Shown here one piece after another: positions 997 through 48,273 of a stretch of 64,000 nt of DNA (the stretch's first letter is position 1; each line of letters starts with the position of its first letter). Made by a program: the position numbers and the translations under genes. Origin of the DNA: Gammaproteobacteria bacterium (GTDB lineage: Bacteria; Pseudomonadota; Gammaproteobacteria; Francisellales; CACEW01); NCBI GenBank assembly GCA_029240715.1, contig JARDZR010000006.1, positions 1,104 to 65,103 of the forward strand, given 5' to 3'. The notes under the pieces are model-generated. The model had not been told where the DNA came from, searched no databases, and was given only the letters and a program-made list of their open reading frames with translations.

Positions 997-3312
997 TTAA
1001 TCCTTTCCTGGCAGCACTGTGGCAGTCTGCTCTTGGTTGTTTTGGGCGTGTTCGCCAGCATTTAATGCGGGTGCAAAAGTGATGGCAGCCATCGCTCTTT
1101 CAGCAGAGTTAAGACTTGGGCTTGCTATGATTGGGCTTGAAAGTTGCACATGCTCTGTTTCTTCCTCTAAAGCGTAAATGGCTAGATCTAGTATAATTTC
1201 CCCAATTAAAACTTTGTCTTGCTCGCTTATTGAAGATTCCTGATTAAGCAAACGCGCTATTTTTTCATTCAATGCAGAAAGGTCGCTAACCTGATCAAGG
1301 TTAATCCGACGCTTGGCAAGCAGAACAAAACAGTTTATCGCATTAGAGCGTACGGTTGGGTTTTCATGAATAAAGAGATCTGCAACACTGTCCATTAGCC
1401 CAGCGCTTTCACCGGCAAGCTTTAGGTTTTCTGCATGAGATTTAATCAATTCAAATAAGGCTGTTAAGGCATTACCTTGGGCTTGATAATTGGCATGGTT
1501 TTTAAGGACGGGCACTAAGGCTTTGAAAATTTTTGGGTTTTTGCCAAGAAGCTCTTGGTTTTCAGGATTGTTTTTAGCAAGCTGCGCCAGTTGGAAAGTT
1601 GCATTTCTTTGTAAATCTGCATATTCAGCATGGGTATCTGATATAGCATCCAGCAGCTTTGTTTGAACAGAAGGGTTGGCTGCAATCATAGTAAAAGTAG
1701 AAGGGTGGCCATTTGTCAGCAAAGATAAAACTCTTAAGCTGTTAATGTTTGATAGTTCCGGGCTGTTGAGGCTGTTTAAAAAATATTTAAGGTCCACTTT
1801 GGCAAGGACCGCAGCTTGTCGATCCGAATTCTCCCCGGCAACACATTCTAAAGCAAGGATCAATTGATTTTTGATTTCAGAATGAGCAGAGCTTTCTAAA
1901 ACAGCGATGACGTTATTGATAAACTCTGGGTGAGCAAGCATTCTGGCTTGATAGTCAGTGTTAAATGCGGTCAAATTTTCGATGGCTAGAGCTGTTTTGT
2001 ATAAAATTTCAAGATGATTGCTTTTAAGGGAAGTGATGAGCTGCTCAGTCAATCTAGCGTCCAAAAAATCGGTGTGCTTAAACGATAAAGCATTAATGAG
2101 TGAAAGTGCGGATAATTTTGAATGTTGTTCTTGGTTTGTATTTTCATGATTGCGTGGCCCTGAGACATGAAAGTAAAGTAAGCTATTGAGAGCCTCGACA
2201 ACAATTTGCATTTGGGTGTCGGATAATAAAAAATCAGGATCTTTGAGGGCCAATTGCTCTATAATATTGCAAGCAAAGATTTTAACGCTTATGTTGCTGC
2301 TCGCCAGCACTTCGATAATAAAATTATTCAACAGTGCATTTTTGCTAAGAACTGATATATCACCTGATGAGGTATCTGCTAAAGTTCTTAATATATATAA
2401 GGCCCGCAGAATTTGCGGTACGGCATCCGCTTCTTTGGCATAATCTTTAAGAAGTGCTGCAAGAGTCGAGATTGCCACAGGGCTTTGTGCAATTCTTGTT
2501 CTTAATAAAGCTGAATTAATTAATTCAGCCAAAATCATCAGAAAGTTGTAGTTTAGCTTTGGGTCCTTGTATTTAAATGCTTCAAAAATCTCAAGAACAG
2601 GCATGTTAATAAAAAGGCTTGCAGCATGAGGAGTTAATTTATTTAACATAAACAAAATTTCATTCACATGAGCTTGTATTTTTTTTGGTTTTTCTATGCT
2701 GGGATCTGCTTTTAAAAGTAAGCAGGCATTTTTAAGCAAGTCTGGATGGGCCAAAACAATTTTTTGACTATCTGGTAGCATCAATAAATTATTTAAAAGA
2801 ACGAGTGCATTGGCTTTTGCTTCAAATGAAGCAAGGGCATCACTCATGATTCCCGCGAGTATATCAAACACATTTAGCCCATTAACCTTGGTGCTTACAG
2901 CTATTTTTGAATTTGCTTCATGCGCCCTAATTAGTTGGAGTAAACCTGCTACAAGGCCAGAAAATGCTGGATGAGTTTTTAGCTTGGCTAGTTTTGATAT
3001 GAGGATTTGAATGATATCCGTTTTTGAGCCAACGTGATTTTGATTCAGCTTGTGGTTTTTTACTAAAATGCTGACGGCCATCGCAGCAGTAGCTATGTTC
3101 CCATTGGTTTCGTAATCGCTGGCTAAAATTGACCTCAATGCATGAAAAATCTCACGGTCACCCAATGCGCTTTGCATGCCTGGCTTTGGGATGGGAATGT
3201 CTGAAAATGGCTGGTCAGCGCATAAAAATATAATTTGATTTAATGCGGTTGATCTCAGTGCTGGATCACGGCTATGAAGCTGTGAGAGTAAGTCGTTAAT
3301 TTTTCCCTGCAT
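997..3312 (-). CDS. Armadillo/HEAT-repeat protein (eukaryote-like, candidate secreted effector)
   Basis: 771 aa from ATG 3312, with AAGGAA about 7 nt upstream; the track start at 3342 is TTG. The protein is all-helical. It has at least 6 degenerate ~40-aa repeats of the ARM pattern N/DxxxQxx(L/I)xxxPxxxxxL(V/I)xxL, e.g. NTDYQARMLAHPEFINNVIAVLES, NSDRQAAVLAKVDLKYFLNSLNS, NPENQELLGKNPKIFKALVPVLKN. No enzymatic motif was seen. Confidence 0.6.
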   Translation of the reverse strand: MQGKINDLLSQLHSRDPALRSTALNQIIFLCADQPFSDIPIPKPGMQSALGDREIFHALRSILASDYETNGNIATAAMAVSILVKNHKLNQNHVGSKTDIIQILISKLAKLKTHPAFSGLVAGLLQLIRAHEANSKIAVSTKVNGLNVFDILAGIMSDALASFEAKANALVLLNNLLMLPDSQKIVLAHPDLLKNACLLLKADPSIEKPKKIQAHVNEILFMLNKLTPHAASLFINMPVLEIFEAFKYKDPKLNYNFLMILAELINSALLRTRIAQSPVAISTLAALLKDYAKEADAVPQILRALYILRTLADTSSGDISVLSKNALLNNFIIEVLASSNISVKIFACNIIEQLALKDPDFLLSDTQMQIVVEALNSLLYFHVSGPRNHENTNQEQHSKLSALSLINALSFKHTDFLDARLTEQLITSLKSNHLEILYKTALAIENLTAFNTDYQARMLAHPEFINNVIAVLESSAHSEIKNQLILALECVAGENSDRQAAVLAKVDLKYFLNSLNSPELSNINSLRVLSLLTNGHPSTFTMIAANPSVQTKLLDAISDTHAEYADLQRNATFQLAQLAKNNPENQELLGKNPKIFKALVPVLKNHANYQAQGNALTALFELIKSHAENLKLAGESAGLMDSVADLFIHENPTVRSNAINCFVLLAKRRINLDQVSDLSALNEKIARLLNQESSISEQDKVLIGEIILDLAIYALEEETEHVQLSSPIIASPSLNSAERAMAAITFAPALNAGEHAQNNQEQTATVLPGKD

Positions 3313-3550
3313 TTTAAAATTCCTTGAGTCGTTTTTAAGCAAATATTGTTTTTTAAAACAAACTACACGCTAATCCTATCATTTTATGTGAATGGGTTTA
3401 TACATGCATATACATAGCAGTATCCATACTATTGTTGGCTTTATAGGGGCTTCAAGGAGCTAGAGAGAACTGTGTTTTTGTCTGTATGACTTGATTGCTA
3501 ATGAGCGTTGAAAGTTTGTGAAATGATTAAAACTTCTAAAGGTCTTTAAT

Positions 3551-10594: not shown

Positions 10595-13472
<2,878 letters not shown>

Positions 13473-13553
13473 AATTATAAAAAAATATGTAAAATCCGAC
13501 TATAATAGTATATAATAACTATTAAATTTGCAGGGAAGCAAAAGAGAGGCGCT

Positions 13554-14582
13554 ATGCAAGGCAAGTCGGGACTTAAAAAAATCAATCCGCAACAGCAAAA
13601 ACCTTTTATTGATATGGCTTTTCAGGACCTCAAAAAAAGCATGAACGGCGCTTATTCATTTAGTCTTATGAATAACTTTTTTAAAAAACATCAAATGCTA
13701 GTCCAAACATTTTCCCCAGAAAACCGCGCCTATTATAAACAAAAGCTAAGCGAATTTCCTAAACAGTTTGCTGCTCAAACTAGCGTAAAAAGAGATAAAG
13801 TCATAACGAATATGCAAGCGACTGTGGCTAAGGCACAAGCTCTAAACACTATGGCTCAGGCAGTCATCGCTAAAGCCCCCCAAGTGAAATCCGCTCCTGT
13901 GCAACAGTCCCTTTTTTCCAAAATAGCCAGTGCCATTAGTGAGGCAGTAAAATCGACATTCAGCGCTATTTCAAGCTTATTTAGCAAGGCTAAAGCCACA
14001 GAAAATGCAGTAAGCCCAAGTAGCTCTGTTTTAATAGGCACGGCTCCCAATATTTTAGGCCCTAAAGCCTCAGAGCAAATCGTCACCGACGGTAGCCCAG
14101 CTTCTTATGCAAAGCTTGCCATGCCAAGCGAACCCGAGTTCACTGCGTTTAGAGAGCCTGCACCTACTATGTTAGGTGAACAAGCGGCTCAAAAAATTAT
14201 GGACGAGCTTGAAGCGCTGGCTGCGCGTGACTCAGCAAGCGCTGACTTATACCAGGCTCCTGTTATGAGCCAGGTTAGGGAACCTGAGGTCCAATTAACC
14301 GATTTAAGCCCAGATCAGGCTAAGCATTTAGCTGAAGCTTTGAATGAGGCTGAGGCAACTATAAACAGGGAAGGGGTTGCTGGCAGCTTAGCGCTTGATA
14401 TCCATGAAAATTTAAATAATATGCGGACAGATACTCAGCAATTAGCCTCAGCTTTAAATAAAGGAGTAGGCATAGCAGCAGGTACATTTGCTCAAGCTTC
14501 TAAGACATTACAGGATTTAAGCACTGAGCTTGATCGATCTGGACTGTCTAAGCTCGACAAGGATGACTTTGCTCCCCGCTAA
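13554..14582 (+). CDS. Hypothetical protein, low-complexity/probably disordered (orphan)
   Basis: 342-aa ORF with AGAGAGG upstream and an AT-rich region containing two TATAAT hexamers at 13501 and 13511. Rich in A/S/Q/K, with no signal peptide, TM segment or recognisable motif. Confidence 0.5.
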   Translation: MQGKSGLKKINPQQQKPFIDMAFQDLKKSMNGAYSFSLMNNFFKKHQMLVQTFSPENRAYYKQKLSEFPKQFAAQTSVKRDKVITNMQATVAKAQALNTMAQAVIAKAPQVKSAPVQQSLFSKIASAISEAVKSTFSAISSLFSKAKATENAVSPSSSVLIGTAPNILGPKASEQIVTDGSPASYAKLAMPSEPEFTAFREPAPTMLGEQAAQKIMDELEALAARDSASADLYQAPVMSQVREPEVQLTDLSPDQAKHLAEALNEAEATINREGVAGSLALDIHENLNNMRTDTQQLASALNKGVGIAAGTFAQASKTLQDLSTELDRSGLSKLDKDDFAPR

Positions 14583-14648
14583 GCTGCTTAAGATAAAGGC
14601 AGCGGGTTCATTGACATTTCCCTGATTTCTCTATACCATTGCCCGGCT

Positions 14649-15161
14649 ATGACTAAACTTGGACTACCAGCTAAAATTGACCCAGCAAGCTTTGCAAGAG
14701 CGGGCCGGGAATTCACCGGGGTTTTGGCTCTTTCAGCAATGCCCAGGCTAGCAGAGGCTTTGGCACATGATAAAGCTGAGGCTAAGTACAAGCTGGGCTT
14801 TAAGATAGACGAGGAAGGGTTTGTAGTCATTGGAGTAAGAGCTGAGGCTGCGTTGCCATTAATCTGTCAGCGTTGTTTGCAGGCTTTTTTGTATGAGGTT
14901 AGGCTTTATACTGAATTGAGCCCCGTTACAGATGAGGCTCAGGTAAGTAAGTTGCCTGAAAGATATGAGGCTTGGCCTTTATCTGAAGAGCTAACAATAT
15001 CTCCAAAAGAGATATTAGAAGAAGAATTATTATTGAGCTTGCCCGTTGTGCCTATGCATGATGAAGCAGATTGCCCGGCAACAAAATTGCTGGCTGACTC
15101 AAAGCCTGAAAAAGAACAGGCTACCCATAAACCTTTTGCAATATTAAAAAAATTGAAGTAA
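14649..15161 (+). CDS. yceD: YceD (DUF177) 23S rRNA accumulation protein
   Basis: Collinear with E. coli YceD: N-terminal K.gLP..iDP, CxRC motif (CQRCLQAF), [10 protein letters not shown], and the C-terminal PFA.L..LK. Directly upstream of rpmF. Confidence 0.85.
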
Positions 15162-15175
15162 TTAAGGAGATAAAC

Positions 15176-15328
15176 ATGGCAGTACAACAGAATAAAAAAT
15201 CACGTTCTAGACGTGATATGCGTCGTTCACATGACGCTTTGACTGGCCCAAGCCTTTCAGTTGAACAAACTTCTGGTGAAACCCATCTTCGCCATCATGT
15301 AAGCCCTAATGGCGCGAGCTCTGAGTAA
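15176..15328 (+). CDS. rpmF: 50S ribosomal protein L32, with aberrant/truncated C-terminus
   Basis: Not in the ORF track because it is only 50 aa. GGAGA SD. The protein [46 protein letters not shown] matches L32, then ends ASSE* instead of the conserved (Y/F)YRGR(K/Q) tail. Confidence 0.85.
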
Positions 15329-16241
15329 GTATAAGCTTGCCGAGCATCCCCGAGTCAGCATTCATCATGCTTCCGAAGTAGTGGAAATGGATGAATTGCC
15401 TTCTCATGCGCTTCGTAATAAAAAAGATTCCTCGATGCGAGTTGCGATTAATCTGGTAAAAGAAGCTAAGGCACAGGCATGTGTTAGCGCCGGCAATACC
15501 GGGGCTTTAATGGCCACTTCACGATTTGTTTTAAAAACTCTGCCCGGAATTGATCGCCCAGCCATTGTTTACGCAATGCCTGGAGTTAATCACAAGACAG
15601 GCGAAAGGACAGCAGTCCATATGTTAGATTTAGGCGCAAATGTGGATTGTACAGCAGAACATTTGTTCCAATTTGCCATTATGGCCTCAGTTAGAAAGGC
15701 CTTAATCGATAACGTGCCTCAGCCCAGAGTCGCTTTATTGAACATAGGCGAAGAAGAAATCAAAGGCCTGGAAAGCATTAAAGAGGCAGCCAAGCTTATT
15801 GCTAACTGCCGTTATTTAAATTACTGCGGCTTTGTAGAAGGCAATGATATTTTTACAGATAAGGCTGATGTCATTGTTTGCGATGGCTTTATCGGCAACA
15901 TTGCACTGAAAACTGCTGAGGGCACAGCTAAATTTATTTCTTACATGGTGAAAGACGCATTCAGAAGCAATTTGCTAATGAAAATATGCGCTATTTTGGC
16001 TTTCCCTGCTTTGCTTAGAATTAAGAAAAACCTTGATATGCGTCGTTATAATGGCGCTAGCTTTCTTGGGCTTAAAGGCATTGTAGTCAAAAGCCACGGC
16101 GGGGCCGATGCTTTAGCTTTCTCCACTGCCATTACTGAAGCGCTGGCTGAAGTTGAAAAAAACATCCCTAGCCAAATTCATGCCCAAGTGGAAGCGCTAT
16201 TAGGGCAGACCAATATTACAGGAACAACTAATGCCGGCTAA
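15309..16241 (+). CDS. plsX: Phosphate acyltransferase PlsX, N-terminally truncated (possible pseudogene or shortened form)
   Basis: Strong PlsX similarity from [27 protein letters not shown] onward ([54 protein letters not shown]). About 35-45 N-terminal residues, including the (A/V)DAMGGD motif, are missing. The frame is closed by TAA at 15300-15302, and the ATG overlaps the rpmF 3' end. Confidence 0.8.
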
Positions 16242-17196
16242 GATAGCAGGGACAGGCTATTATTTGCCTAAACAAGTTTTAACTAATCAAGAAATTGCGA
16301 AGTGGGTGGATACTTCTGATGACTGGATCCGCCAACGAGTAGGAATTATTTCTCGCCATATTGCCAGTGAAAATGAAACCAATGTGTTTATGGCAGAGCA
16401 GGCAGCAAAAAAAGCTTTGGCTGAAGCTAAGCTTGACCCTAAAGATCTTGATCTCATTATTGTCGCTACTTCCACTCCTGACAGCATCATGCCAAGCACA
16501 GCTTGCGAAGTGCAGCATAAACTTGGAGTGGCAGGTTGTCCTGCCTTTGATGTCAATGCAGCCTGCAGTGGCTTTATTTATGCTTTAAGTATTGTTCATC
16601 AGTTTTTCTTAGCGGGCACAGTTAAGCATGTTTTAATTATTGGCAGTGAACGCATGTCCCGTGTGATTAACTGGCAAGATCGCAGCACCTGTGTCTTGTT
16701 TGGAGATGGCGCTGGAGCGGTGGTATTAAGCGCATCAGACCAGCCTGGAATTTTAGGTAGCTATATTCATGCAGATGGCCAGCATAAAGAATTGCTGCAT
16801 ATTCCTAATCACCTGCCCGACCAAGCTTTTGCAGGGGAAAAATTAGAAGCTAAGTTGACCATGCAGGGCAATAAGGTGTTTCGCTACGCCGTAACGATGC
16901 TAGAACAGGTGGTTTTGGAAGTATTAGAGAAACAAGGTTTAGACAAGTCTGCCATTGACTGGTTAGTTCCTCACCAAGCCAATGAAAGAATTATCGCAGC
17001 CACTGCTAAAAATTTAGGGCTTTCTATGGATAAAGTCATATTAACTTTGCCTACTCAGGGAAATACTTCGGCAGCTTCTATTCCTTTAGCTTTGGCTTAT
17101 GCCATTGAGCAAAATAAAATAAAACGCGGTGAACTTTTGTTGTTAGAAGCATTTGGGGCTGGCTTCGTTTGGGGCGCAGCTTTAATACGTTATTAA
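16231..17196 (+). CDS. fabH: 3-oxoacyl-ACP synthase III
   Basis: Catalytic motifs AACSGFIYAL (Cys), VPHQAN (His) and GNTSAASIPLAL (Asn). 321 aa, in fab cluster order. Confidence 0.95.
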   Translation: MPAKIAGTGYYLPKQVLTNQEIAKWVDTSDDWIRQRVGIISRHIASENETNVFMAEQAAKKALAEAKLDPKDLDLIIVATSTPDSIMPSTACEVQHKLGVAGCPAFDVNAACSGFIYALSIVHQFFLAGTVKHVLIIGSERMSRVINWQDRSTCVLFGDGAGAVVLSASDQPGILGSYIHADGQHKELLHIPNHLPDQAFAGEKLEAKLTMQGNKVFRYAVTMLEQVVLEVLEKQGLDKSAIDWLVPHQANERIIAATAKNLGLSMDKVILTLPTQGNTSAASIPLALAYAIEQNKIKRGELLLLEAFGAGFVWGAALIRY

Positions 17197-17220
17197 TAAA
17201 ATAATAGTTAGGTGATAAAC

Positions 17221-18156
17221 ATGGAAAAAATTGCCTTTTTGTTTCCAGGGCAGGGCTCACAAAAGCTGGGTATGCTAAGTGAATTAGCAGCACAGTTTCC
17301 TGTAGTGAAATCAACTTTTGAAGAAGCTAAACAAGCTCTAGGTTATGATCTGTGGGAACTTATCCAGCAAGATGAAACTAAGCTGAATCAAACTGAATAT
17401 ACTCAACCAGCCGTTTTAGCGGCCAGTATCGCAATTTGGAGAATATGGCAGGAAAACACTGAGATCAAACCTGATCTGATGGCTGGCCATAGCTTGGGCG
17501 AATACTCAGCCTTGGTTTGTGCTGAATCCATTGGTTTTGCTGATGCCTTACGTTTAGTGCGTTTGCGTGGTCAATTAATGCAAACTGCAGTGCCTTCAGG
17601 CCAAGGTGCCATGGCTGCTGTTTTAGGATTAGATGATCAAGGGGTGATTGAAGCTTGCAAACAAGCTGCGCAAGATGAAGTCGTCTCAGCCGTTAATTTT
17701 AATGCACCTGGCCAAGTTGTGATTGCAGGCAAACGCAATGCAGTGACTCGTGCGATTGAAACCGCAAAAGCTTTAGGGGCCAAAAAAGCGTTGCTTTTAC
17801 CCGTTAGCGTTCCTTCGCATTGTGAACTAATGCGACCGGCTGCAGAAAATTTGGCGCAGGCTTTAGAGCAGGTTTCCATTCAGACCCCTAAAATTCCAGT
17901 GGTACAAAACGTTGATGCTAATATTCATTTATCATCTGAAGAAATAAGATCTGCCTTGGTAAAACAATTATTCAGCCCAGTTCAATGGGTGAAAAGCGTG
18001 CAAAAGCTGCATCAAGAATCTTGCCGAACTTTCATTGAATGCGGTCCAGGCAAAGTGTTGTCGGGGCTTAATAAAAGAATAGTGAGTGAAGGTAGCTTCA
18101 TTGCAATTGATGACTTAAGCGGCTTAGAAGCCGCGTTGCAATTGGTTAAAAATTAA
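17221..18156 (+). CDS. fabD: Malonyl CoA-ACP transacylase
   Basis: ATG 17221 after AGGTGA gives MEKIAFLFPGQGSQ, matching the E. coli FabD N-terminus; the track start 17212 is GTG. Active-site motif GHSLGEYSAL. Confidence 0.95.
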   Translation: MEKIAFLFPGQGSQKLGMLSELAAQFPVVKSTFEEAKQALGYDLWELIQQDETKLNQTEYTQPAVLAASIAIWRIWQENTEIKPDLMAGHSLGEYSALVCAESIGFADALRLVRLRGQLMQTAVPSGQGAMAAVLGLDDQGVIEACKQAAQDEVVSAVNFNAPGQVVIAGKRNAVTRAIETAKALGAKKALLLPVSVPSHCELMRPAAENLAQALEQVSIQTPKIPVVQNVDANIHLSSEEIRSALVKQLFSPVQWVKSVQKLHQESCRTFIECGPGKVLSGLNKRIVSEGSFIAIDDLSGLEAALQLVKN

Positions 18157-18172
18157 AGCGCTTGGAGGAATT

Positions 18173-18910
18173 ATGTCAGAAAACCAAAAAATTGCTCTAG
18201 TGACAGGCGCAAGTCGAGGTATTGGCCAGGCGGTTATGTTTGAGCTAGCTAAGCATGGTATCTATGTGATTGGCACAGCCACCAGTGAATCTGGGGCTGA
18301 AAAGATTAGCCAAGCTCTTCAGAGCGCAGATTTAAAAGGTGAAGGCAGGGTTTTAGATGTGGCCTCGCCAGAAATGATTGAAAGTTTTTTTGAGCAAATT
18401 AAAGATAAAGTGGGTATGCCCAATATTTTGGTTAATAATGCGGGTATTACTCGAGACAATTTAATGATGAGAATGTCAGATGAAGAATGGCAGACGGTAA
18501 TTGATACCAATTTGTCAGGAGTCTTTCGTCTAAGCAAAGCTTGTTTGCGCCCAATGATGCAAGCACGCTGGGGACGCATTATCACTATCGGCTCAGTCGT
18601 GGGCAGTATGGGAAATCCTGGCCAAGCCAATTATTGTGCGGCAAAAGCCGGGGTAATAGGATTTTCAAAAGCTTTGGCTCGTGAAATAGGCTCGCGTGGC
18701 ATTACGGTTAACGTGGTTGCCCCGGGCTTTATCGATACGGATATGACTTCAGGTCTGCCGGATAACCATAAACAAGCCTTGTTAGATATGATTCCCTTAA
18801 AGAGAATGGGGAAACCAGAAGATATTGCATCTTTGGTGGGTTTTTTAGCTTCAGAGCAGGCGTCCTATATTACCGGTGAAGCTATTCACGTCAATGGCGG
18901 TATGTATTAA
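18173..18910 (+). CDS. fabG: 3-oxoacyl-ACP reductase
   Basis: SDR motifs TGASRGIG, NNAGI and Y...K (NYCAAKAG), and the C-terminal YITGE..HVNGGMY. GGAGGA SD. Confidence 0.95.
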   Translation: MSENQKIALVTGASRGIGQAVMFELAKHGIYVIGTATSESGAEKISQALQSADLKGEGRVLDVASPEMIESFFEQIKDKVGMPNILVNNAGITRDNLMMRMSDEEWQTVIDTNLSGVFRLSKACLRPMMQARWGRIITIGSVVGSMGNPGQANYCAAKAGVIGFSKALAREIGSRGITVNVVAPGFIDTDMTSGLPDNHKQALLDMIPLKRMGKPEDIASLVGFLASEQASYITGEAIHVNGGMY

Positions 18911-18987
18911 ATCGATTAAAATAAGATACAGATTGGCAGATATATTGACAAATTGTTTGAAAATTGAGCAAAAGAAAAAAGTTTTTC

Positions 18988-19015
18988 TTGAAACATCCGG
19001 AAATTTGAATAAACT
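18988..19015 (+). promoter_or_regulatory. Candidate sigma70-type promoter for acpP
   Basis: TTGAAA (18988-18993), a 16-nt spacer, then TAAACT (19010-19015), about 45 nt upstream of the acpP ATG. Hexamer matching by eye only. Confidence 0.25.
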
Positions 19016-19059
19016 AGCACGATAAGCTTTTTTGAATCATTAATTAAGAGGATAACTAG

Positions 19060-19299
19060 ATGAGCAATACAATCGAAGCCCGCGTTAAAAAAATAATCGT
19101 TGAACAATTGGGCGTTAAAGAAGAAGATGTCACTCCAAATGCTTCACTAGTTGATGATTTGGGCGCAGATTCACTTGATACCGTAGAATTAGTGATGGCT
19201 TTGGAAGAAGAATTTGAAACTGAAATTCCAGACGAAGATGCTGAAAAAATTACTACTGTTCAACAAATCACTGACTACATTAAGAGTCATTCCAAGTAA
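19060..19299 (+). CDS. acpP: Acyl carrier protein
   Basis: 79 aa with the phosphopantetheine site [19 protein letters not shown]. Confidence 0.97.
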
Positions 19300-19323
19300 T
19301 TTATTGTCTACAGAATCATCTAA

Positions 19324-19360
19324 AGGCTGGTTTATCGGTAACGAGAACCGGCCTTTTTTT
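19324..19360 (+). terminator. Rho-independent terminator/attenuator between acpP and fabF
   Basis: AGGCTGGTT (19324-19332) pairs with AACCGGCCT (19346-19354) through one G-U pair, followed by a T7 run. Confidence 0.65.
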
Positions 19361-19373
19361 ATAAGGAGATAGC

Positions 19374-21222
<1,849 letters not shown>

Positions 21223-21289
21223 TGCACCCCTATTTATTTTAAATGAAATTTGCTATGTTCTAGTTCATTTAACCAGAGAAAGGGACCTT

Positions 21290-21892
21290 ATGAAACTCAC
21301 CTATGTAACAGGCTATTTGTTAGCTATCGCTGCTGTGGTACAAAGTCAGTTGCTTGCAAAAAAGCAGGCATTTATTGATGTTACCCAAGACCCGCATCCT
21401 TCCGAATTTGCCGATATCACGACCTTATATACCGGAGCACCGGCTGATAGTTGTATTCTAGGTTTTGAATTGGGCCGTTTGGACCACGATGTAGCTGAGC
21501 AACAGATTTTACAAAAAGGAGCGTATTTGCCTTTATTAGCAACAGCTGGTTCTGGCTTTCCCAACGCCACGCATTACTTAGGTGCGCCTGATTATAATGA
21601 GCAAATGTATTGCACATTTAGCCCTAAATTAAAACTGCAGTTTGATGCTGATCCAAGTTGTGAGGTAAATCCAGGCAATATAAGTTGCGTGGAAGGTCAA
21701 ACCTATATAGTTGCCAAATCAGAACAAGCTTATGGGGTTGTTATCAAAAATATTGGCGATAAGTATCAAGGGGTTTTTGGAAGCTTTTCGCTATTGCAGG
21801 AGGAAAGCGGACTAGCTGGGAAATTTCATTGTAGAAAAGCCCGCAGTTCAGAAACCTTGGGTAGCTCGAAATTTGATCAGGCTGCGCCTTGA
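21290..21892 (+). CDS. Hypothetical secreted protein (signal peptide, 6 Cys)
   Basis: ATG 21290 after GAAAGGGA gives MKLTYVTGYLLAIAAVVQSQLLA, a signal-peptide-like N-terminus. The track's longer start overlaps tmk. No recognisable domain. Confidence 0.55.
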   Translation: MKLTYVTGYLLAIAAVVQSQLLAKKQAFIDVTQDPHPSEFADITTLYTGAPADSCILGFELGRLDHDVAEQQILQKGAYLPLLATAGSGFPNATHYLGAPDYNEQMYCTFSPKLKLQFDADPSCEVNPGNISCVEGQTYIVAKSEQAYGVVIKNIGDKYQGVFGSFSLLQEESGLAGKFHCRKARSSETLGSSKFDQAAP

Positions 21893-21967
21893 GCAAGCTT
21901 TCGAGTATTTGATATGCTGCTATAGGTTTAGCGAGCCAACGGAACATAATAAAACGGGAGATAAAAT

Positions 21968-22834
21968 ATGCAAGGTTTTTCCATAAAAAAAGCTGTTATT
22001 GCAACAGTTGCTGCTTGTGCTGCTGTAACTAAAAGTGCTTTAGCGCAAGATTCGTTCGGTTTTGTAGGGGCAAATCATACTTATGTGAGCAGTAACGACG
22101 GAGAAGCTGTTAATCTTTTTAACGGCACAGGTCTTGTCGGGGGCAATGATACCCTCGGCTATACTCTTGGCTTTACCGCTACATTTACTGCGATTGATCC
22201 TTCTGCCGCTAATTGTAGCATGGCGGTCGGCAACCAAACATTAGTGCTGGGTTCGCATCAAGCTAACGGCACTTTACCCATCCTGAATATTACTTCCGAA
22301 GGGATGGCTAACCAAACCCTGGCTAACTTTAGCTCAATTTGTTACGGCAACGATACCTTGGCAATAAGTGTTTCCGCATTAAATGGTGAAACTTCTGCCA
22401 ATAATACTTTGCTAGCTACCCAAGATAACTATGAGACGCCTGCTCCTTCTGGAGATTGCGTGAATGGAACAGTGACAGGCGTGCCGTTAATGGAAAAGGT
22501 AACTTTAGGTAAGTCCTTTACTACTTCTGGAATAGGATTTAAAGCAACAGGTTCTGGAGATGTTACGCCGTTCTGTGACTTTTCACAGGTTTCAAAAGCA
22601 TGTCCGGACGGATGGAATGCCACAGAAAGTTTTTGTGAAGGAAAAACGGCAGCAGCTGAGCAATTACCTCAGTCATTGAATAACGTGGTGGTCGTCAATC
22701 AAAAGTTACTTGTAGGAAAATCCGGAGAGGTGAACTGTTACTTAAAACAAGAAGCTTGTCCAATATTTGGTAATTTTACCTTGGCAAAAGTTTTGGGCAT
22801 TGCTTTAGAACAGTCCCCGCAAGCAGCATTGTAA
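21968..22834 (+). CDS. Hypothetical secreted protein, Asn-x-Ser/Thr-rich, 8 Cys in the mature part
   Basis: GGGAGA SD and signal peptide MQGFSIKKAVIATVAACAAVTKSALA. 14 of 23 Asn lie in N-x-S/T, and the motif N-x-T-L recurs six times. Followed by a strong terminator. Confidence 0.6.
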   Translation: MQGFSIKKAVIATVAACAAVTKSALAQDSFGFVGANHTYVSSNDGEAVNLFNGTGLVGGNDTLGYTLGFTATFTAIDPSAANCSMAVGNQTLVLGSHQANGTLPILNITSEGMANQTLANFSSICYGNDTLAISVSALNGETSANNTLLATQDNYETPAPSGDCVNGTVTGVPLMEKVTLGKSFTTSGIGFKATGSGDVTPFCDFSQVSKACPDGWNATESFCEGKTAAAEQLPQSLNNVVVVNQKLLVGKSGEVNCYLKQEACPIFGNFTLAKVLGIALEQSPQAAL

Positions 22835-22851
22835 TAACTTAAGTTGTTTAA

Positions 22852-22875
22852 AGCCCTCAGCTGAGGGCTTTTTTA
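22852..22875 (+). terminator. Rho-independent terminator
   Basis: AGCCCTC-AGCT-GAGGGCT hairpin followed by TTTTTT, 18 nt after the stop at 22834. Confidence 0.8.
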
Positions 22876-22949
22876 TGCCTTAATAAATTGCTAAGCCAGC
22901 GGCAAAATTATACACTATACATTTTGTGTGCAGGCTTAGGGACTTATAG

Positions 22950-24251
22950 ATGACAGGGCAATTGCCTAAAAAGCATTTTACCGCATATGCGGCGTATCCG
23001 ATATTAATCGTGATGCTCTGCGCTGCTTTTCTTTTTTACAAATATGTCCTACAAGTTTCCCCCAGCATCATGACTCATCAGCTTATGCGGGAGTTTCAGG
23101 TTAATGGAGTTGGGCTAGGTAACCTAGCAGCGACCTTTTTCTATGCTTATTTTATTACTCAATTGTTTGTTGGGATTTTATTAGACAAATACAGCGTTCG
23201 CTTGTTAAGCAGCTTGGCCATTTTGATCAGCGGCTTGGGGGCTTGTTTATTTGCCGATACTCATTCTTTGCTTTTAGCAGGATTATATCGTGCTATGATG
23301 GGCTTTGGCGCGGCTTTTGCAACAGTCTGCTATTTAAAAACGACTGCTGTTTGGTTTAAGCCTAAGCAGTTTGCCTTTATCAGCGGGCTTTTAGCAACTG
23401 CTGCAATGCTAGGGGCGGTGTTTGGAGAAGCGCCTTTATCTTTTGTAGTCCAATCTTATGGCTGGCGGGCTTGCCTAACAGGTTGTGGTATTGCAGGCAT
23501 TCTTTTGGCCGTGCTGTTTTTTGTTGTAGTAAGAGATCAGTCTTTTTTTGGGCCGTCAGCTGCATCGCAGCAAACTAAGCATGGCATCAGTTTGCGGGCC
23601 GTTGCTGAAGTATTAAAAAGCAAGCAAAACTGGCTGCTGACTTTTTACAGCGGGCTTTCATTTACCCCGGTTGCAGTGTTTGGGGGCTTGTGGGGCAACC
23701 CTTTTTTACAGGAAAGCTATACTATTTCACAAACTCAGGCGGCTAGTTTGGTTTCATTAAGCTTTTTGGGTTTGGCTTTTGGTGGGCCGATACTTGGGCT
23801 GATTTCAGACCGTCTTGGTAAAAGAATGCAAATCATGCTGCTTGGCAATCTTCTGGCCCTAGCGGCTTTGTGCTTAGTCATTTATTGCTCTGCTTTATCC
23901 TACTGGATGGTCGGTATTTTATTGTTTGTATTTGGTTTTGGAGTGAGCGCTTTCATGCTGGCTTTTGCAGTCGGAAAAGAAAGCAACCCGATTGCATTAG
24001 CGGCTACAGTCATTGCCTTAATCAATTCAGGAGACGGGATATTGGGTTCCTTTTCTGAGCCTTTAGTCGGCAAAGTTTTAGACTGGCAATGGAGCGGAAA
24101 AATAGTAAATGGCGTGCATTATTTTTCTTTAAAGGACTATCAAACAGCACTGTCTTTACTGCCGGTTTATTTATTGATTGCCATCGTTTTATTGTTTTTT
24201 GTGCGGGATTCCAAGCGGCATTTTAATGCCATGGCTGAGCTAGAAGCCTAA
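22950..24251 (+). CDS. MFS transporter, possibly Pht (phagosomal transporter)-like
   Basis: 433 aa with 12 predicted TM segments. The N-terminal FLFYKYVLQVSPSIM....F.....GLGNLAATFFYAYF..Q...G.LLD resembles the Legionella/Coxiella Pht family as I recall it. The family assignment is tentative. Confidence 0.6.
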   Translation: MTGQLPKKHFTAYAAYPILIVMLCAAFLFYKYVLQVSPSIMTHQLMREFQVNGVGLGNLAATFFYAYFITQLFVGILLDKYSVRLLSSLAILISGLGACLFADTHSLLLAGLYRAMMGFGAAFATVCYLKTTAVWFKPKQFAFISGLLATAAMLGAVFGEAPLSFVVQSYGWRACLTGCGIAGILLAVLFFVVVRDQSFFGPSAASQQTKHGISLRAVAEVLKSKQNWLLTFYSGLSFTPVAVFGGLWGNPFLQESYTISQTQAASLVSLSFLGLAFGGPILGLISDRLGKRMQIMLLGNLLALAALCLVIYCSALSYWMVGILLFVFGFGVSAFMLAFAVGKESNPIALAATVIALINSGDGILGSFSEPLVGKVLDWQWSGKIVNGVHYFSLKDYQTALSLLPVYLLIAIVLLFFVRDSKRHFNAMAELEA

Positions 24252-24260
24252 GGGAGATAA

Positions 24261-25301
24261 ATGATAGAGCTTAAGGCGGTTAATAAATCTTATCATAGCA
24301 AACTGGCTAAGTTTCATGCTTTAAAAGACATTAACCTGAAGGTCGCCAAAGGCGAAATTTATGGCATTATTGGCAGGTCTGGGGCTGGAAAAAGCACATT
24401 GATCCGCTGCGTTAATTTATTGGAAAGGCCAGATAGCGGTGAAGTCATCGTGGATGGAGTAGATTTATTAAAGCTCAATCCGGCTGCTCTGCGTGAAAAG
24501 CGGCATTCCATCGGCATGATTTTCCAGCATTTCAACTTATTACATTCCCGAACAGTCTATGACAATGTAGCCTTGCCTTTAGAATTAATCAGCATTGGTA
24601 AGCCTTATATCGCTAAAAGGGTCAATGCTTTGTTGGAGTTAACGGGTTTGGCTTCTCATAAAAACCACTATCCGCATCAGCTAAGCGGTGGGCAAAAGCA
24701 AAGGGTGGCAATAGCCAGAGCTTTGGCAACTTCTCCCAAAGTTTTATTAAGCGATGAAGCGACTTCCGCTTTAGACCCTGAAACGACTCGCTCAATTTTA
24801 AATTTGCTTAAAAAAATAAACCAAGAGCTTAATCTGACCATTTTACTGATTACCCACGAAATGGATGTTATCAAAAGCATTTGTGACAGGGCAGGCATTT
24901 TAGATCAGGGAGGGCTGATTGAAGAAGCCCCGGTATTGCAACTATTTGCAAGGCCAAAATCTGAGGTAGCTAAAAAATTTACTCAGTCTGCTTTGCATAT
25001 TCAATTGCCGGAAAGCTTAAGAGAAAGGTTGCAGGCCCAGGTTTTCCCTAATTCAAGGCCTATTGTTAAATTGACCTTTTTGGGGGAAAAAGCAGAGGAG
25101 CCTATTGTGGTCAGTTTAATGACACGCTTTAACGTGACCACCAATATTTTGCAGGCCAACTTAGAAATGGTTGGGCATTCTCCGGTAGGTATGACCATTT
25201 GTGAGCTATGGGGCACTCCAGGAGCTATCGAGCATAGCCTTGAATTTATTAAATCTCAAAATATACAGGTGGAGGTATTAGGCTATGTCTCAACTCATTA
25301 A
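24261..25301 (+). CDS. metN: Methionine ABC transporter ATP-binding protein
   Basis: Walker A GRSGAGKST, signature LSGGQKQRVAIARAL, Walker B LLSDEATSALD, and a C-terminal NIL/ACT-like domain (ILQANLE....G...CEL.G). Confidence 0.92.
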   Translation: MIELKAVNKSYHSKLAKFHALKDINLKVAKGEIYGIIGRSGAGKSTLIRCVNLLERPDSGEVIVDGVDLLKLNPAALREKRHSIGMIFQHFNLLHSRTVYDNVALPLELISIGKPYIAKRVNALLELTGLASHKNHYPHQLSGGQKQRVAIARALATSPKVLLSDEATSALDPETTRSILNLLKKINQELNLTILLITHEMDVIKSICDRAGILDQGGLIEEAPVLQLFARPKSEVAKKFTQSALHIQLPESLRERLQAQVFPNSRPIVKLTFLGEKAEEPIVVSLMTRFNVTTNILQANLEMVGHSPVGMTICELWGTPGAIEHSLEFIKSQNIQVEVLGYVSTH

Positions 25302-26745
25302 TTCCGATCTGTATCTAGCTTTATGGCAAACCATTTATATGGTGTTTATCTCAAGTTTTTTAAGCCTTATTTTAGGCTTGGGGCTTGGGGTGGCTTTATT
25401 TATCACTCGCCCTAATCAATTATTAGCTTCTCCTTCCTTAAATAAAGTGTTGGGAAGCATAGTGAATATCACTCGCTCGGTGCCTTTTGTAATTTTGATG
25501 ATTGGCATTATTCCCTTAACCAGGCTTTTGGTGGGCAGCACAATCGGTAGCAATGCCGCTATTGTGCCTTTAACTTTAGCGGCCATTCCCTTTTTTGCCA
25601 GAATTGCCGAAACTGCGCTGTCTGAAGTGGACCTCGGTTTAATTGAGGCTGCTGAAGCGATGGGGGCTACTCCCTGGCAAATTATTTTTAAAGTGCTGGT
25701 TCCAGAGGCTTTGCCAAGCCTGATTTCCGGAGCGACTTTGACCATTATCAGCTTAATCAGTTATTCGGCGATGGCTGGGGCAGTAGGCGGAGGAGGATTA
25801 GGAGATTTGGCTATCCGCTATGGCTATCAACGTTTTGATGTGATAGTGATGCTGGAAACCGTTGTCATTCTTGTTATTTTGGTACAAATGGTGCAAATGC
25901 TGGGAGATTATTCGGCCAAACTCCGAAGCTTAAGAGGCTTTGCTGTCTTGAGTATAGTTTTGTGGTTGTGCTGTATATTCGCTTGGTCTTATTCCTATTT
26001 TGCTGCACCTAAACAAGACAGTTTAAAAGTAGGAATTATGTCAGGTACAGAAGAGCAGGTGATGCAGGTGGCGCAGCAAGTTGCGGCCAAGCAGTATAAT
26101 TTAAACCTACAGCTTGTGACTTTTGATGACTATATTTTGCCTAATACGGCCCTTAATTTTGGCAATATTGATGCCAATATTTTCCAAACTATTCCCTATT
26201 TAAATAACCAAATCGCTCAAAGGCATTATCAGATTGCCTGGATTGCCAAAACCTTTGTTTACCCAATGGGCCTGTTCTCTAAAAAATATAATAATCTTAA
26301 CGCCTTGCCATATGGAGCTATCGTAGCGATTCCTAATGACCCTAGCAATGAAGGCAGGGCTTTATTGCTGCTGCAAAAGGCCGGTTTGATTAAACTGAAT
26401 CCAACAGCAGGTTTGTTCGGCACGCCAAGTGATGTGATTAGCAATCCTAAAAATATACAGCTTAAGGCTTTAGACGCCGCTAGTATTCCAAGAGCTTTGC
26501 CTGATGTGGATTTGGCCGCAATTACCAATGACTACGTGGCCCCGTCCGGCTTAAATTTAACTCAGGCCTTATTTAAAGAAGATGCCAGCGCACCCTATGC
26601 CAATATAATTGTGGTGAGAACTCAAGACCAGAACAACCCGCTGCTTCAAAAGCTCGTTGCAGTGATGCATTCGCCTGAAGTCATTAAAGTCACTGCACAG
26701 CTCTATCCAAGTGGCGCGGCGATTCCAGCTTGGACGGCAAGTTGA
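25285..26745 (+). CDS. Fused methionine ABC transporter permease (MetI) and substrate-binding protein (MetQ/NlpA family)
   Basis: Residues 1-215 are collinear with E. coli MetI (RS.PF.IL, VGTSIG..AAIVPLT, EA..AMGATP.QI..KVL.PEALP, YSAM.GAVG.GGLG). A hydrophobic segment follows (FAVLSIVLWLCCIFAW). Residues from about 245 to 486 are collinear with MetQ (KVG.....E..V..VA.....Y.L...LV.F.DY.LPN.AL..G.IDAN.FQ, PNDP.N.GR.LLLLQK.GLIKL, NPKN). There is no stop codon between the parts. Confidence 0.85.
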   Translation: MSQLINSDLYLALWQTIYMVFISSFLSLILGLGLGVALFITRPNQLLASPSLNKVLGSIVNITRSVPFVILMIGIIPLTRLLVGSTIGSNAAIVPLTLAAIPFFARIAETALSEVDLGLIEAAEAMGATPWQIIFKVLVPEALPSLISGATLTIISLISYSAMAGAVGGGGLGDLAIRYGYQRFDVIVMLETVVILVILVQMVQMLGDYSAKLRSLRGFAVLSIVLWLCCIFAWSYSYFAAPKQDSLKVGIMSGTEEQVMQVAQQVAAKQYNLNLQLVTFDDYILPNTALNFGNIDANIFQTIPYLNNQIAQRHYQIAWIAKTFVYPMGLFSKKYNNLNALPYGAIVAIPNDPSNEGRALLLLQKAGLIKLNPTAGLFGTPSDVISNPKNIQLKALDAASIPRALPDVDLAAITNDYVAPSGLNLTQALFKEDASAPYANIIVVRTQDQNNPLLQKLVAVMHSPEVIKVTAQLYPSGAAIPAWTAS

Positions 26746-32747: not shown

Positions 32748-33938
32748 ATGTTTACTTCTTTCCTTACAGACCATGCAGTAAAAGCCATTGCATTGCTGCC
32801 GATTGATCAAGCTCATTATAGCGCTTGGCTAAAACAACAAGATGCTCTGACCCAGCAGTGGCTTGCAACGGTCAGCTTCAATGCTGAACCTGGCCAAATT
32901 TGTTGCATACCTGATGCTACAGGCCATATTAAGCAGGTATTAGTAGGGGTCAATCCACAAAATAGCTTGTGGAGTTTAGCCGATTGCCCTAAACAGTTGC
33001 CGGCCGGCTCCTATGAGTTACAAGATCAATTTGCTTTGCTTTGTGCAGAACAAGCCGCTTTAGGCTGGGGCTTGGCTTCTTATCGATTTGACCGCTATAG
33101 CAGCAACAAACAAACTTCCTATCGCCAACTCATAATAGACTCTGCATTGTTGAAAAAAGTCACAGCAGTTTTAGAAGCCTGTTATTGGGTGAGAAATTTA
33201 ATTAATACTCCTGCTGAAGACATGGGGCCGGAACATTTATCTTCCCAAGCCCGTAATCTCGCTGAACGCTATCAGGCCCAGTTTACTGAGATAGTTGGAA
33301 AAGATTTGCTTAATCAGGGCTATGCCGGCATTTATACAGTGGGCCGAGCTGCAGTCCAAGCCCCTCGATTGATTGATATACACTGGGGAAAAAGTTCTGA
33401 CCCTAAAATAACTTTAGTGGGTAAAGGGGTGTGTTTTGACAGCGGCGGCCTTAATTTAAAGCCGGCAGATAATATGCTTTTAATGCGAAAAGATATGGGT
33501 TTGGCAGATGCTCTAAGCGAAGCTTCGCAAGATCATCCTGAGCTTTTGATCGATTTTGCCACCTTAACTGGAGCGGCCAGAATGGCGCTTGGAACTTCCT
33601 TGCCTGCTTTATTTTCCAATCGGGATGAATTGGCTTTTGAAATAGCTAAGCTTTCTAAAGCGGAAAACGATCCCATGTGGCCAATGCCATTATTTGCTCC
33701 CTACAAGCGTTTAATTAAAGGAAAATTTGCTGATTTAACCAACAATCCTGGAACAGGAATGGGAGGGGCAATCACTGCGGCCTTGTTTTTAGAATGCTTT
33801 GTAGATGAAAATATCCCTTGGCTGCATATTGATCTGATGGCTTGGAATGATTCAAACCAGCCTGGGCGCCCTGAAGGAGGAGAAGCAATGGGAATGAGGG
33901 CCTTGTTTGCATACCTGGCTAAGCGTTATATTGCGTAG
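32748..33938 (+). CDS. M17 leucyl-aminopeptidase-family protein with an internal in-frame gap removing the NTDAEGR catalytic core (probable pseudo-enzyme or pseudogene)
   Basis: Motifs N.PAEDMGP, VGKGVCFDSGGLNLKP, MRKDMG, then directly LADAL....P.L.IDFATLTGAA, GGAITAALFL and HIDLMAW. The roughly 60-65 residues that separate DM.GAA from EGRL.LADAL in E. coli PepA, including NTDAEGR, are absent. Confidence 0.8.
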   Translation: MFTSFLTDHAVKAIALLPIDQAHYSAWLKQQDALTQQWLATVSFNAEPGQICCIPDATGHIKQVLVGVNPQNSLWSLADCPKQLPAGSYELQDQFALLCAEQAALGWGLASYRFDRYSSNKQTSYRQLIIDSALLKKVTAVLEACYWVRNLINTPAEDMGPEHLSSQARNLAERYQAQFTEIVGKDLLNQGYAGIYTVGRAAVQAPRLIDIHWGKSSDPKITLVGKGVCFDSGGLNLKPADNMLLMRKDMGLADALSEASQDHPELLIDFATLTGAARMALGTSLPALFSNRDELAFEIAKLSKAENDPMWPMPLFAPYKRLIKGKFADLTNNPGTGMGGAITAALFLECFVDENIPWLHIDLMAWNDSNQPGRPEGGEAMGMRALFAYLAKRYIA

Positions 33939-40851: not shown

Positions 40852-41877
40852 ATGCATATAGAGCTATTTATCCCTGATTTAGTTTTTAATAGACCAGGCC
40901 ATGCTGCTGGTCTGCATCCTTTGTTTGAGCTTGAGTTGCCCAGCCTATCTTTATTATTAGATGGAGCAGTAAAAAGCGATTCATTGATAGATGAAGAATA
41001 CTGTTTGGCAGAAAGCTGTGGACTGGACATCAATCCTCCTTATGGAATAGCTGCTTTAACGGCTGAATTAGAAGGCTTGCCAGCAAAAATAGGCTGTTGG
41101 CTTAGAGCGGACCCGGTCCGTATGCAGGTCGGGCAAGAAACAGTTTATTGTTTGGGGCAGCAAGATCTTCACATCAGCTCAGAAGAAGCTAAATCACTTA
41201 TAGATGATGTGAATACGTTATTACAGGAAGACAATTTAAACTTAATGATGGGAGATAATCCCATGCATTGGTATTTGCTTATCGAGGCAAGAGATTTTCA
41301 AACTACCGCCCTAAGCAGAGTGATCGCTAAGCCTATAAGAGATTATTTGCCACAAGGAATAGCCGGGAGACTATGGCAAAAACGTCTCACAGAGATTCAA
41401 ATGTTGCTAAAAGCCCATCCAGTTAATATAAAACGCCAAAACTTGGGTTTGGCTGCTGTAGACAGCGTATGGTTCTGGGGGGAAGGTGAATATCCTAAGT
41501 TATCTTATCAGAGAAAAGACGTACTATTTGGAGATGATAGCTTTGCCCAGGCCGTTGCATTAGCGGCTAATTTAGCTTATCGGCCGATTCCTGAAAACCT
41601 CGACGAAATTTTATCGGGCCCCTATCAAAAAATAATATTGATTGATCATAGATTAAGATGGGCTCTAGCAAAAGGCAGCTTAGAGCAATGGCAATGCCAG
41701 GTGGTCAATTTAGAGAAGAAGCTATTTTTGCCTCTATTGCTAGCTTTGAAAAATAAAAAATTAGATCGGATAATTTTCAATTTTTGCAATTCGGTTTCTT
41801 TTCACATCGCACGGTCTAGCCTCAAAAAATGGTGGCAACGTACGCAATCATTGCAGGACAGACTTTGTAAACCTTAG
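40852..41877 (+). CDS. Conserved hypothetical protein (tentatively RpfE-type / phosphoglycerate-mutase-like family)
   Basis: AAAGGAGAGGG SD. The N-terminal L.IPDL and internal VWFWGEG resemble a family annotated that way in Xanthomonas and betaproteobacteria. Assigned from memory only. Confidence 0.4.
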   Translation: MHIELFIPDLVFNRPGHAAGLHPLFELELPSLSLLLDGAVKSDSLIDEEYCLAESCGLDINPPYGIAALTAELEGLPAKIGCWLRADPVRMQVGQETVYCLGQQDLHISSEEAKSLIDDVNTLLQEDNLNLMMGDNPMHWYLLIEARDFQTTALSRVIAKPIRDYLPQGIAGRLWQKRLTEIQMLLKAHPVNIKRQNLGLAAVDSVWFWGEGEYPKLSYQRKDVLFGDDSFAQAVALAANLAYRPIPENLDEILSGPYQKIILIDHRLRWALAKGSLEQWQCQVVNLEKKLFLPLLLALKNKKLDRIIFNFCNSVSFHIARSSLKKWWQRTQSLQDRLCKP

Positions 41878-41993
41878 CTTTTTTCTATTTGATGCAATGC
41901 TAGACAGTCATCAAATTTATTAATATGCTGGCACAGTTATGGAAATAACATCTTGAATTATATTAATAACATAAGTTTATTAGGAGGGGTATA

Positions 41994-43529: not shown

Positions 43530-43546
43530 TAATCTCTAATATTAAA

Positions 43547-43572
43547 AGCCCCATAAACTGGGGCTTTTTTTT
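43547..43572 (+). terminator. Rho-independent terminator
   Basis: AGCCCCA-TAAAC-TGGGGCT hairpin followed by a T8 run, 18 nt after the stop at 43529. Confidence 0.85.
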
Positions 43573-43645
43573 ATAAAATTTTTGCAGCAGACCAGCAGTT
43601 TTTTGAGTAAAGTAATAGGCCAGACATTTCAGTAAGGATATTTTT

Positions 43646-47196: not shown

Positions 47197-48273
47197 ATGG
47201 TGAAGTTACGGCTCATTATAAAAACAATAGTATTGAGTTGCTTGCTGTTAGCTTTTAATCATAGCTGGGCAATGCAAAGCTATGGCCCCACTAAAGCCAA
47301 TGAAACTTTGTGGTCAATTGCTAGCCGGCATCATCCGGCTAAAGTCACAGTAGAGCAAACTGCTTTAGCAATCGTAAAGCTTAACCCTAAATCTTTCCAG
47401 GGCTCAGATTATGTTTTGCGCCTGCATTCTTACTTAAGGCTGCCTACTACTGCTTCTGAAGTTAAATCTGTTTTAGGCTTGACTGCTGTGAGTACAGCCA
47501 ATAGTAAAGCCAAGGCTTCAAGCAAGCTAAACAAGCCAGTAGTTAAGTCGGCGCGCACTGTTTCAAGCGCTAAGTCAGTCCATCCACATAAACTACCTAG
47601 CGCAGATCACCGCGCTGTTTCGCCGCAGCCAATGCCTCCTCAACAAGCTTATCTCTCTCAGATAGCGGAACTTAATCAACAACTGACTGCAGCCAATCAG
47701 CAGATTGCTTCTCTTCAGCAGCAATTATCAGATAGCAACAGTAATGTTAATGGTTTTCCTTGGGCAAGCCTTTGGTTTATTTTATGGGCTTTAACCAGCG
47801 TTTCTTTATATATGGTCTATCGTCGTTATAAATCTGCTGAAACAGTAGAAACGGAAGACGATGCAAACTTAAAAGCTCAATTAAAAGAAGCTCGAGGCAA
47901 AACTGAGCCTATTATTATTTCAGTATCGGAAAAAGAGCCCGAAAACCCATTCCAGCAAGGTGAGCTTGATATTCCTGCAAATGAAATTGGCTTGAATGAA
48001 CAAAGCTTGGCAGAAACTACCGACAATGAAACAGAGCAGGCAGAAGACATGCCGGCCACCCCCGAAATTCAAGCTCTGTTGCAGCAAATAGAAACGGATC
48101 CTTACAACTTAGAATTGCGCATGGAGCTGTTAGAGCTTTATGCTAATGCTTCTGATCAAGCGGGTTTTAACCAACAGTCACGAGAGATGTTAAATCACAA
48201 TCTAATGATGGAAGGTGATGAGGTTTGGTCTAAAGTGAGGGCTTTATATCTTAATACCTGGGTCTATGCCTAG
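47197..48273 (+). CDS. Short FimV/HubP-family protein (LysM-like N-domain, TM, FimV C-terminal motif)
   Basis: Signal/TM segment, then YGPTKANETLWSIASRHHPAKVTVEQTALAIVKLNPKSF (the FimV N-terminal LysM-like signature). A Q-rich coiled coil follows, then a TM segment (WASLWFILWALTSVSLYMVY), an acidic region and the C-terminal DPYNLELRMELLELY motif. Confidence 0.6.
   Translation: MVKLRLIIKTIVLSCLLLAFNHSWAMQSYGPTKANETLWSIASRHHPAKVTVEQTALAIVKLNPKSFQGSDYVLRLHSYLRLPTTASEVKSVLGLTAVSTANSKAKASSKLNKPVVKSARTVSSAKSVHPHKLPSADHRAVSPQPMPPQQAYLSQIAELNQQLTAANQQIASLQQQLSDSNSNVNGFPWASLWFILWALTSVSLYMVYRRYKSAETVETEDDANLKAQLKEARGKTEPIIISVSEKEPENPFQQGELDIPANEIGLNEQSLAETTDNETEQAEDMPATPEIQALLQQIETDPYNLELRMELLELYANASDQAGFNQQSREMLNHNLMMEGDEVWSKVRALYLNTWVYA

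Follow-up and report, generated by a model that had tools for sequence, protein, structure and literature searches.

The 64,000-nucleotide stretch of DNA analysed here (the window) lacks 186 bp at the junction of rpmF and plsX, exactly between positions 15313 and 15314, so that both genes are shortened, while contigs of the same strain from other assemblies hold the missing segment. The gap is not a chance effect, being the single gap in an otherwise 100%-identical 12-kb alignment. Two further blunt losses, of 189 and 214 bp, were located in the same window, and a local assembly or scaffold-join error in the deposited contig, which belongs to a metagenome-assembled genome (MAG), is probably the origin of the 186-bp gap.

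The truncated rpmF and plsX genes

In the window, rpmF (15176-15328, forward strand) encodes a bL32 protein of 50 amino acids, in which native residues 1-46 are followed by four foreign residues, ASSE, and a stop codon. The N-terminal MAVQQNK...RRSHD and central ...GE.HLRHH segments of bL32 are present, while native residues 47-60 (FYRGRKVIDSKRDE) are missing and the protein ends in ...SPNG-ASSE, lacking the C-terminal (F/Y)YRG(R/K) strand, which completes the bL32 fold in ribosome structures. Profile matches stop at the same place, covering positions 1-44 of the 56 in Pfam Ribosomal_L32p (PF01783; 62.8 bits, cutoff 21.3) and positions 1-45 of the 56 in TIGR01031, rpmF_bact (58 bits, cutoff 22.6).

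The plsX remnant (15309-16241, forward strand) is an open reading frame of 310 amino acids, made up of "MA" and then native residues 45-352. It retains the SAGNTGA region in the centre and the KSHG region at the C-terminus, and it matches positions 48-322 of the 324 in Pfam FA_synthesis (PF02504; 312 bits) and positions 50-330 of the 337 in TIGR00182 (322.2 bits, cutoff 243.4). On the other side, the N-terminal 45 residues or so, with the (A/V)DAMGGD loop, are absent and the first 47-50 or so profile positions remain unmatched. A TAA at 15300-15302, inside rpmF and two codons upstream of the ATG at 15309, closes the plsX frame. Both triplets are also found in the intact allele, where the ATG is formed by the A-AT-G of the Asn-Gly codons (AAT-GGC) of rpmF, and it falls in the plsX frame because the deleted 186 bp are a multiple of three.

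Most of this had been anticipated by a sequence-only reading of the region. The 50-residue L32 ending in ASSE, with its conserved tail gone, is confirmed by the open reading frame and the profile matches, and so are, from sequence and profiles, the closure of the plsX frame by the TAA and the loss of the head containing DAMGGD. The same reading described ATG 15309 as devoid of a Shine-Dalgarno sequence, and indeed no GGAG-like motif was found upstream of it. It was also said to be the only start, which holds in so far as it lies near the 5' end of the open reading frame; however, an in-frame GTG (codon 25) and an in-frame ATG (codon 27) follow it. Finally, a single deletion of about 150-250 bp had been proposed to account for the loss of the rpmF tail, the spacer and the plsX head, an estimate borne out by the exact figure of 186 bp.

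As established by blastn against the same-strain contigs, the missing segment opens with the 42 nt for L32 residues 47-60 and the TAA stop codon, continues with the 10-nt spacer and closes with 131 nt from the start of plsX, which cover residues 1-43 plus two bases of codon 44. No microhomology (0 bp) exists at this blunt junction: the left flank, ending in ...CTAATGGC, and the deleted segment, ending in ...ATACTTGA, have no base in common, nor do the start of the deleted segment, TTTTATCG..., and that of the right flank, GCGAGCTC.... A repeat search found no direct or inverted repeats bracketing this junction or either of the other two described below. Repeat-mediated deletion, or a repeat-mediated collapse during assembly, is thus ruled out by the lack of both microhomology and bracketing repeats.

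The bL32 chains of solved ribosomes (PDB) align with the intact L32 along its whole length, and the intact PlsX aligns from residue 3 onward to Bacillus subtilis PlsX (1VI1) from residue 4; both lost pieces are parts of the folded proteins. The PlsX residues missing from the window, 1-44 of the intact protein, align to 1VI1 residues 4 to about 45, and, judging by this alignment and by the sequence pattern, they would form a core beta-alpha-beta unit of the alpha/beta domain, made up of beta-strand 1, the Gly-rich loop, helix 1 and strand 2. The 310-residue product, if expressed, would very likely be misfolded and inactive. In the published description of a PlsX structure (PMC6702220), the suspected active sites lie at the dimer interface, and nothing specific is said on the N-terminal 44 residues.

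The surroundings of the junction are undisturbed. Upstream, yceD (DUF177; 14649-15161, forward strand) is intact and identical in the same-strain contigs; downstream, fabH-fabD-fabG-acpP-fabF (16231-20606, forward strand) are all whole, as the sequence-only reading had stated, and 100% identical to the same-strain contigs. Gene order and orientation, both in the window and in its relatives, are those of the canonical gammaproteobacterial cluster known from Escherichia coli and Legionella, yceD-rpmF-plsX-fabH-fabD-fabG-acpP-fabF. The window differs from this arrangement in lacking the 3' end of rpmF, the spacer and the 5' end of plsX, whereas the same-strain contigs have all three. When the open reading frames of at least 120 amino acids were compared with Pfam, no plsB, plsY, plsC, second plsX or second rpmF was found in the 64-kb window. 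Beyond fabF, a related species (contigs L083/L084) carries a RelB/YafQ toxin-antitoxin pair between fabF and tmk (15662-16233 of those contigs), at a place where the window has, after tmk, two open reading frames of unknown function (21197-22834).

The intact allele in other assemblies

Contigs of the same strain were found by exact look-up of the window FabH. One comes from a JGI metagenome assembly (3300042923, Ga0456365_0007631; L081/L085) and the other from a Logan assembly of an SRA run (SRR35179801_45957; L082). By blastn, the former matched window positions 13137-15313 and 15314-25172 (2,177 + 9,859 nt, 12,036 nt in all) with one mismatch, while the latter aligned over 136 + 3,715 nt (3,851 nt) with no mismatches. 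Both carry the extra 186 bp exactly between window positions 15313 and 15314, corresponding to 2178-2363 of L081, where rpmF occupies 2040-2222, and both encode an L32 of 60 amino acids and a PlsX of 352. Relative to this intact allele, the plsX remnant and rpmF of the window show zero substitutions. The JGI and Logan assemblies were produced by different pipelines and are independent as assemblies, although they may share a project, so that the samples are not certainly independent. The 24-nt left flank, common to both alleles, gave 0 matches in a metagenome collection lacking this organism.

Recovery of the missing segment by resequencing had been named in the sequence-only reading as an outcome that would refute it, and this is in effect what the two assemblies provide, since they hold the segment between 100%-identical flanks. 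The same reading had offered that plsX might be inactive, a state tolerable if PlsB were present, or might be made as a shortened protein by coupling to rpmF. Neither proposal finds support, because the other assemblies of the strain restore the segment and encode intact L32 and PlsX. In the intact allele, plsX begins 10 nt after the rpmF stop, a spacing consistent with co-translation, and its native start has no obvious Shine-Dalgarno sequence, so translational coupling between rpmF and plsX is probably the normal mode.

Among other species, the closest in the GTDB representative set is a soil MAG (L001), whose PlsX has 90% amino acid identity and which encodes a 60-residue L32 (ending in ...SPNGFYRGRKVIDSKRDE) together with a full-length PlsX. 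In a tblastn comparison of the intact alleles with 80 related loci, the PlsX alignment started at residue 1-4 in 79, the exception being cut by a contig end, and the L32 alignment reached at least residue 53 in all 78 loci that include the gene. Moreover, contigs L083/L084, which are only about 77-80% identical to the window in DNA, encode an identical 60-residue L32, and the tail of this protein is, on such a comparison, under strong purifying selection.

These comparisons dispose of two readings. It is almost inconceivable that short forms of L32 and PlsX are conserved and functional in the lineage, with no deletion involved with respect to its ancestors, a state which the sequence-only reading had named as a possible refutation: the soil MAG and the same-strain contigs are intact, and so are the heads of 79 of 80 PlsX and the tails of 78 of 78 L32 sequences. 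It can equally be ruled out that the window is the true sequence and the additional 186 bp an insertion or artefact of the other assemblies, since the segment encodes exactly the conserved L32 C-terminus, the stop, the spacer and the PlsX N-terminus, aligns to bL32 and PlsX proteins of solved structure as well as to the loci of 78-79 other species, and is identical in two assemblies from different pipelines.

Three gaps in the window and their origin

The same-strain contigs cover about 62.8 of the 64 kb of the window and are collinear with it, with 0-2 mismatches per contig, apart from three deletions; no insertions were observed. The second deletion lies between positions 33499 and 33500, where 189 bp are absent that are present in a Logan contig (SRR35179801_28735; L088, 1007-1195) and in a JGI contig (3300045996, Ga0456371_00260855; L093, 3251-3439). 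The loss is in-frame and takes 63 amino acids from an M17 leucyl aminopeptidase, including NTDAEGR, the metal-site motif of the M17 family, so that the window frame (32748-33938) encodes 396 residues compared with 459 in the intact form. The third deletion lies between 61597 and 61598, where 214 bp are absent that are present in a further JGI contig (3300042923, Ga0456365_0031246; L098, 546-759); it frameshifts an ankyrin-repeat gene with a C-terminal OTU-like DGNCGF motif, leaving a window frame of 296 residues (60716-61606). Both junctions are blunt and show no microhomology. The second gap has its left breakpoint at 33499, precisely where a contig of the sister assembly (JGI Ga0456365_0029549) ends, and because of this coincidence 33499 is an assembly-graph end or branch point. 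Separately, the contigs of JGI 3300042923 break inside ligA, leaving 167 bp uncovered at window positions 12970-13136, and a further pair of contigs share exactly 127 bp (56267-56393), as is usual at the ends of a graph built with k=127; assembly of the strain from that sample is poor.

The boundaries, the content and the recurrence of the gaps can be read directly from these alignments, while the technical cause and the step responsible are matters on which we infer. An error of assembly is favoured by the occurrence of three blunt losses of 186, 189 and 214 bp within 64 kb, never accompanied by gains, and by flanks that match same-strain contigs holding the segments. In addition, each gap cuts conserved or functional sequence (in the first, FYRGRKV at the C-terminus of L32 and the DAMGGD head of PlsX are lost), the remnants of plsX and rpmF show no decay, with zero substitutions, and the end of the JGI contig coincides with the left breakpoint of the second gap. 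Taken together, these features agree far better with an artefact than with three separate deletions of very recent biological origin. Most probably, two assembled pieces were abutted at a scaffold join, or by a failed gap-fill, without the approximately 190 bp between them, and the real junction of the organism most likely comprises a 60-residue L32, a 10-nt spacer and a 352-residue PlsX.

Some points nevertheless speak against an assembly error. The contig end at 33499 is equally expected from a real branch between two alleles, and a de Bruijn graph assembler needs a read or a scaffolding step to produce a junction without microhomology. Scaffolders normally insert Ns; since the window has none, an error at a scaffold join needs an extra step, such as the removal of Ns or a wrong gap closure.

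Local assembly errors in the scaffolds of short-read MAGs have been documented, and they are said to be particularly prominent with IDBA-UD (PMC7111523). In the cases described by Chen, Anantharaman, Shaiber, Eren and Banfield (2020, Genome Res; PMC7111523), a wrong consensus at scaffold joins gave rise to incomplete or incorrect genes in databases, as would be the case in the window. Those errors were detectable either through other assemblies or through missing perfect read support, and the gaps reported here through the comparison of assemblies. There are differences as well, since the published case had 13 errors in a 1.13-Mb genome whereas the window is denser, with 3 per 64 kb, and since the gaps of the window are specifically clean losses of about 190-214 bp with no Ns left. 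The MAG series to which the closest relative, L001, belongs consists of IDBA-UD scaffolds binned from JGI-sequenced soil microcosms (bioRxiv 10.1101/2021.11.04.467385), a link to that assembler which serves as context for the MAG of the window and not as proof.

The alternative of most weight is that of a genuine, very recent deletion allele, present in the strain or subpopulation that the MAG assembler followed, and it is considered unlikely. In its favour, a pure k-mer graph assembly would need reads containing the junction, given that this lacks microhomology, and the contig of the sister sample ends at a breakpoint as a graph branching into two alleles would. Furthermore, the eukaryote-like proteins of the window, of the ankyrin, ARM/HEAT and MATCAP types, suggest life in association with a host, where genes are commonly lost. 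In E. coli, plsX is dispensable as long as the cell has PlsB, and knock-outs of rpmF survive. Against such an allele, three blunt deletions of 186-214 bp set beside a handful of SNPs in 64 kb make an implausible ratio, and neither the narrow range of sizes nor the lack of microhomology fits a known process: we know of no bacterial mechanism that yields deletions of narrow size without microhomology. The sequences struck are strongly conserved, and plsB, plsY, plsC and second copies of plsX and rpmF are absent from the window. Moreover, the rpmF-plsX gap is confined to one assembly, with intact alleles in every other assembly examined.

A comparison with the pseudogenes produced by reductive evolution in host-restricted bacteria leads in the same direction. 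As in the window, deletions there disable conserved genes, the remnants of which are annotated as proteins. However, true pseudogenes are common to related strains and carry further substitutions or frameshifts, whereas the window remnant is 100% identical to the intact allele; here the truncated form occurred in one assembly only and with zero substitutions.

A real deletion would have considerable consequences. L32 would be made without its last 14 residues and PlsX without residues 1-44, as a null or misfolded fragment. Translation of the latter could only begin at ATG 15309, which has no Shine-Dalgarno sequence, perhaps by reinitiation after the rpmF stop at 15326-15328, a conceivable route since this stop follows the ATG by 17 nt. 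Survival would then need an acyl-ACP-dependent PlsB for phospholipid synthesis, and it would also need explaining why the deletions are so frequent and so uniform in size. It is rather improbable that there exists a real subpopulation with a truncated L32, no functional PlsX and a lost M17 active site, generated by an unexplained process of blunt deletions of about 190-214 bp which would be frequent relative to point mutation.

Deposited proteins and other features of the window

The truncated products form part of the public record. An exact protein look-up of the truncated PlsX and L32 found no encoding contig, while a cluster look-up gave NCBI MAG proteins: MDF2690358.1 (L32, 50 amino acids) and MDF2690359.1 (PlsX, 310 amino acids). 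MDF2690378.1 corresponds to the truncated leucyl aminopeptidase and MDF2690402.1 to the truncated ankyrin protein. All derive from the MAG "Gammaproteobacteria bacterium", from a contig of 65,599 bp, and since the truncated products are deposited, the deletion was already in the public record and was not introduced later. If the losses are errors of assembly, the 50-residue L32 and the 310-residue PlsX are consequences of collapsed sequence for the annotation, and at least four deposited NCBI proteins from this contig are probably truncated in this way. With about three events per 64 kb, many more are possible in the rest of the MAG, and any call of a truncated gene or pseudogene from this genome should first be checked against reads or other assemblies. 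The biological weight of the observation is small, as an ordinary rpmF-plsX-fab operon is most likely present in the organism; the practical value of the observation is that of a data-quality flag.

As regards the eukaryote-like proteins, the window encodes an ARM/HEAT-repeat protein of 781 amino acids (997-3342, reverse strand), a homologue of the microtubule-associated tyrosine carboxypeptidase MATCAP (53890-55191, reverse strand; E 5e-126) and the ankyrin-repeat protein mentioned above (60716-61606, forward strand). These proteins suggest that this uncultured gammaproteobacterium lives in association with a host, in the manner of Legionellales. Several open reading frames of 231-537 amino acids have no Pfam match (13554-14582, 21197-22834, 40852-45259 and 47197-48273) and are 100% conserved in the same-strain contigs. 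At two of the sites, one upstream of yceD and the other after tmk, L083/L084 have other genes instead. The unmatched frames are possibly lineage-specific or effector genes. Finally, a frame of 486 amino acids (25285-26745) combines an ABC permease domain (BPD_transp_1) with an NlpA/MetQ lipoprotein domain, as a fused MetI-MetQ-like transporter component. This fusion is not an effect of the assembly, because the same open reading frame is found in the same-strain contig L097 and one of 486 amino acids with these two domains in the related species (L083/L084).
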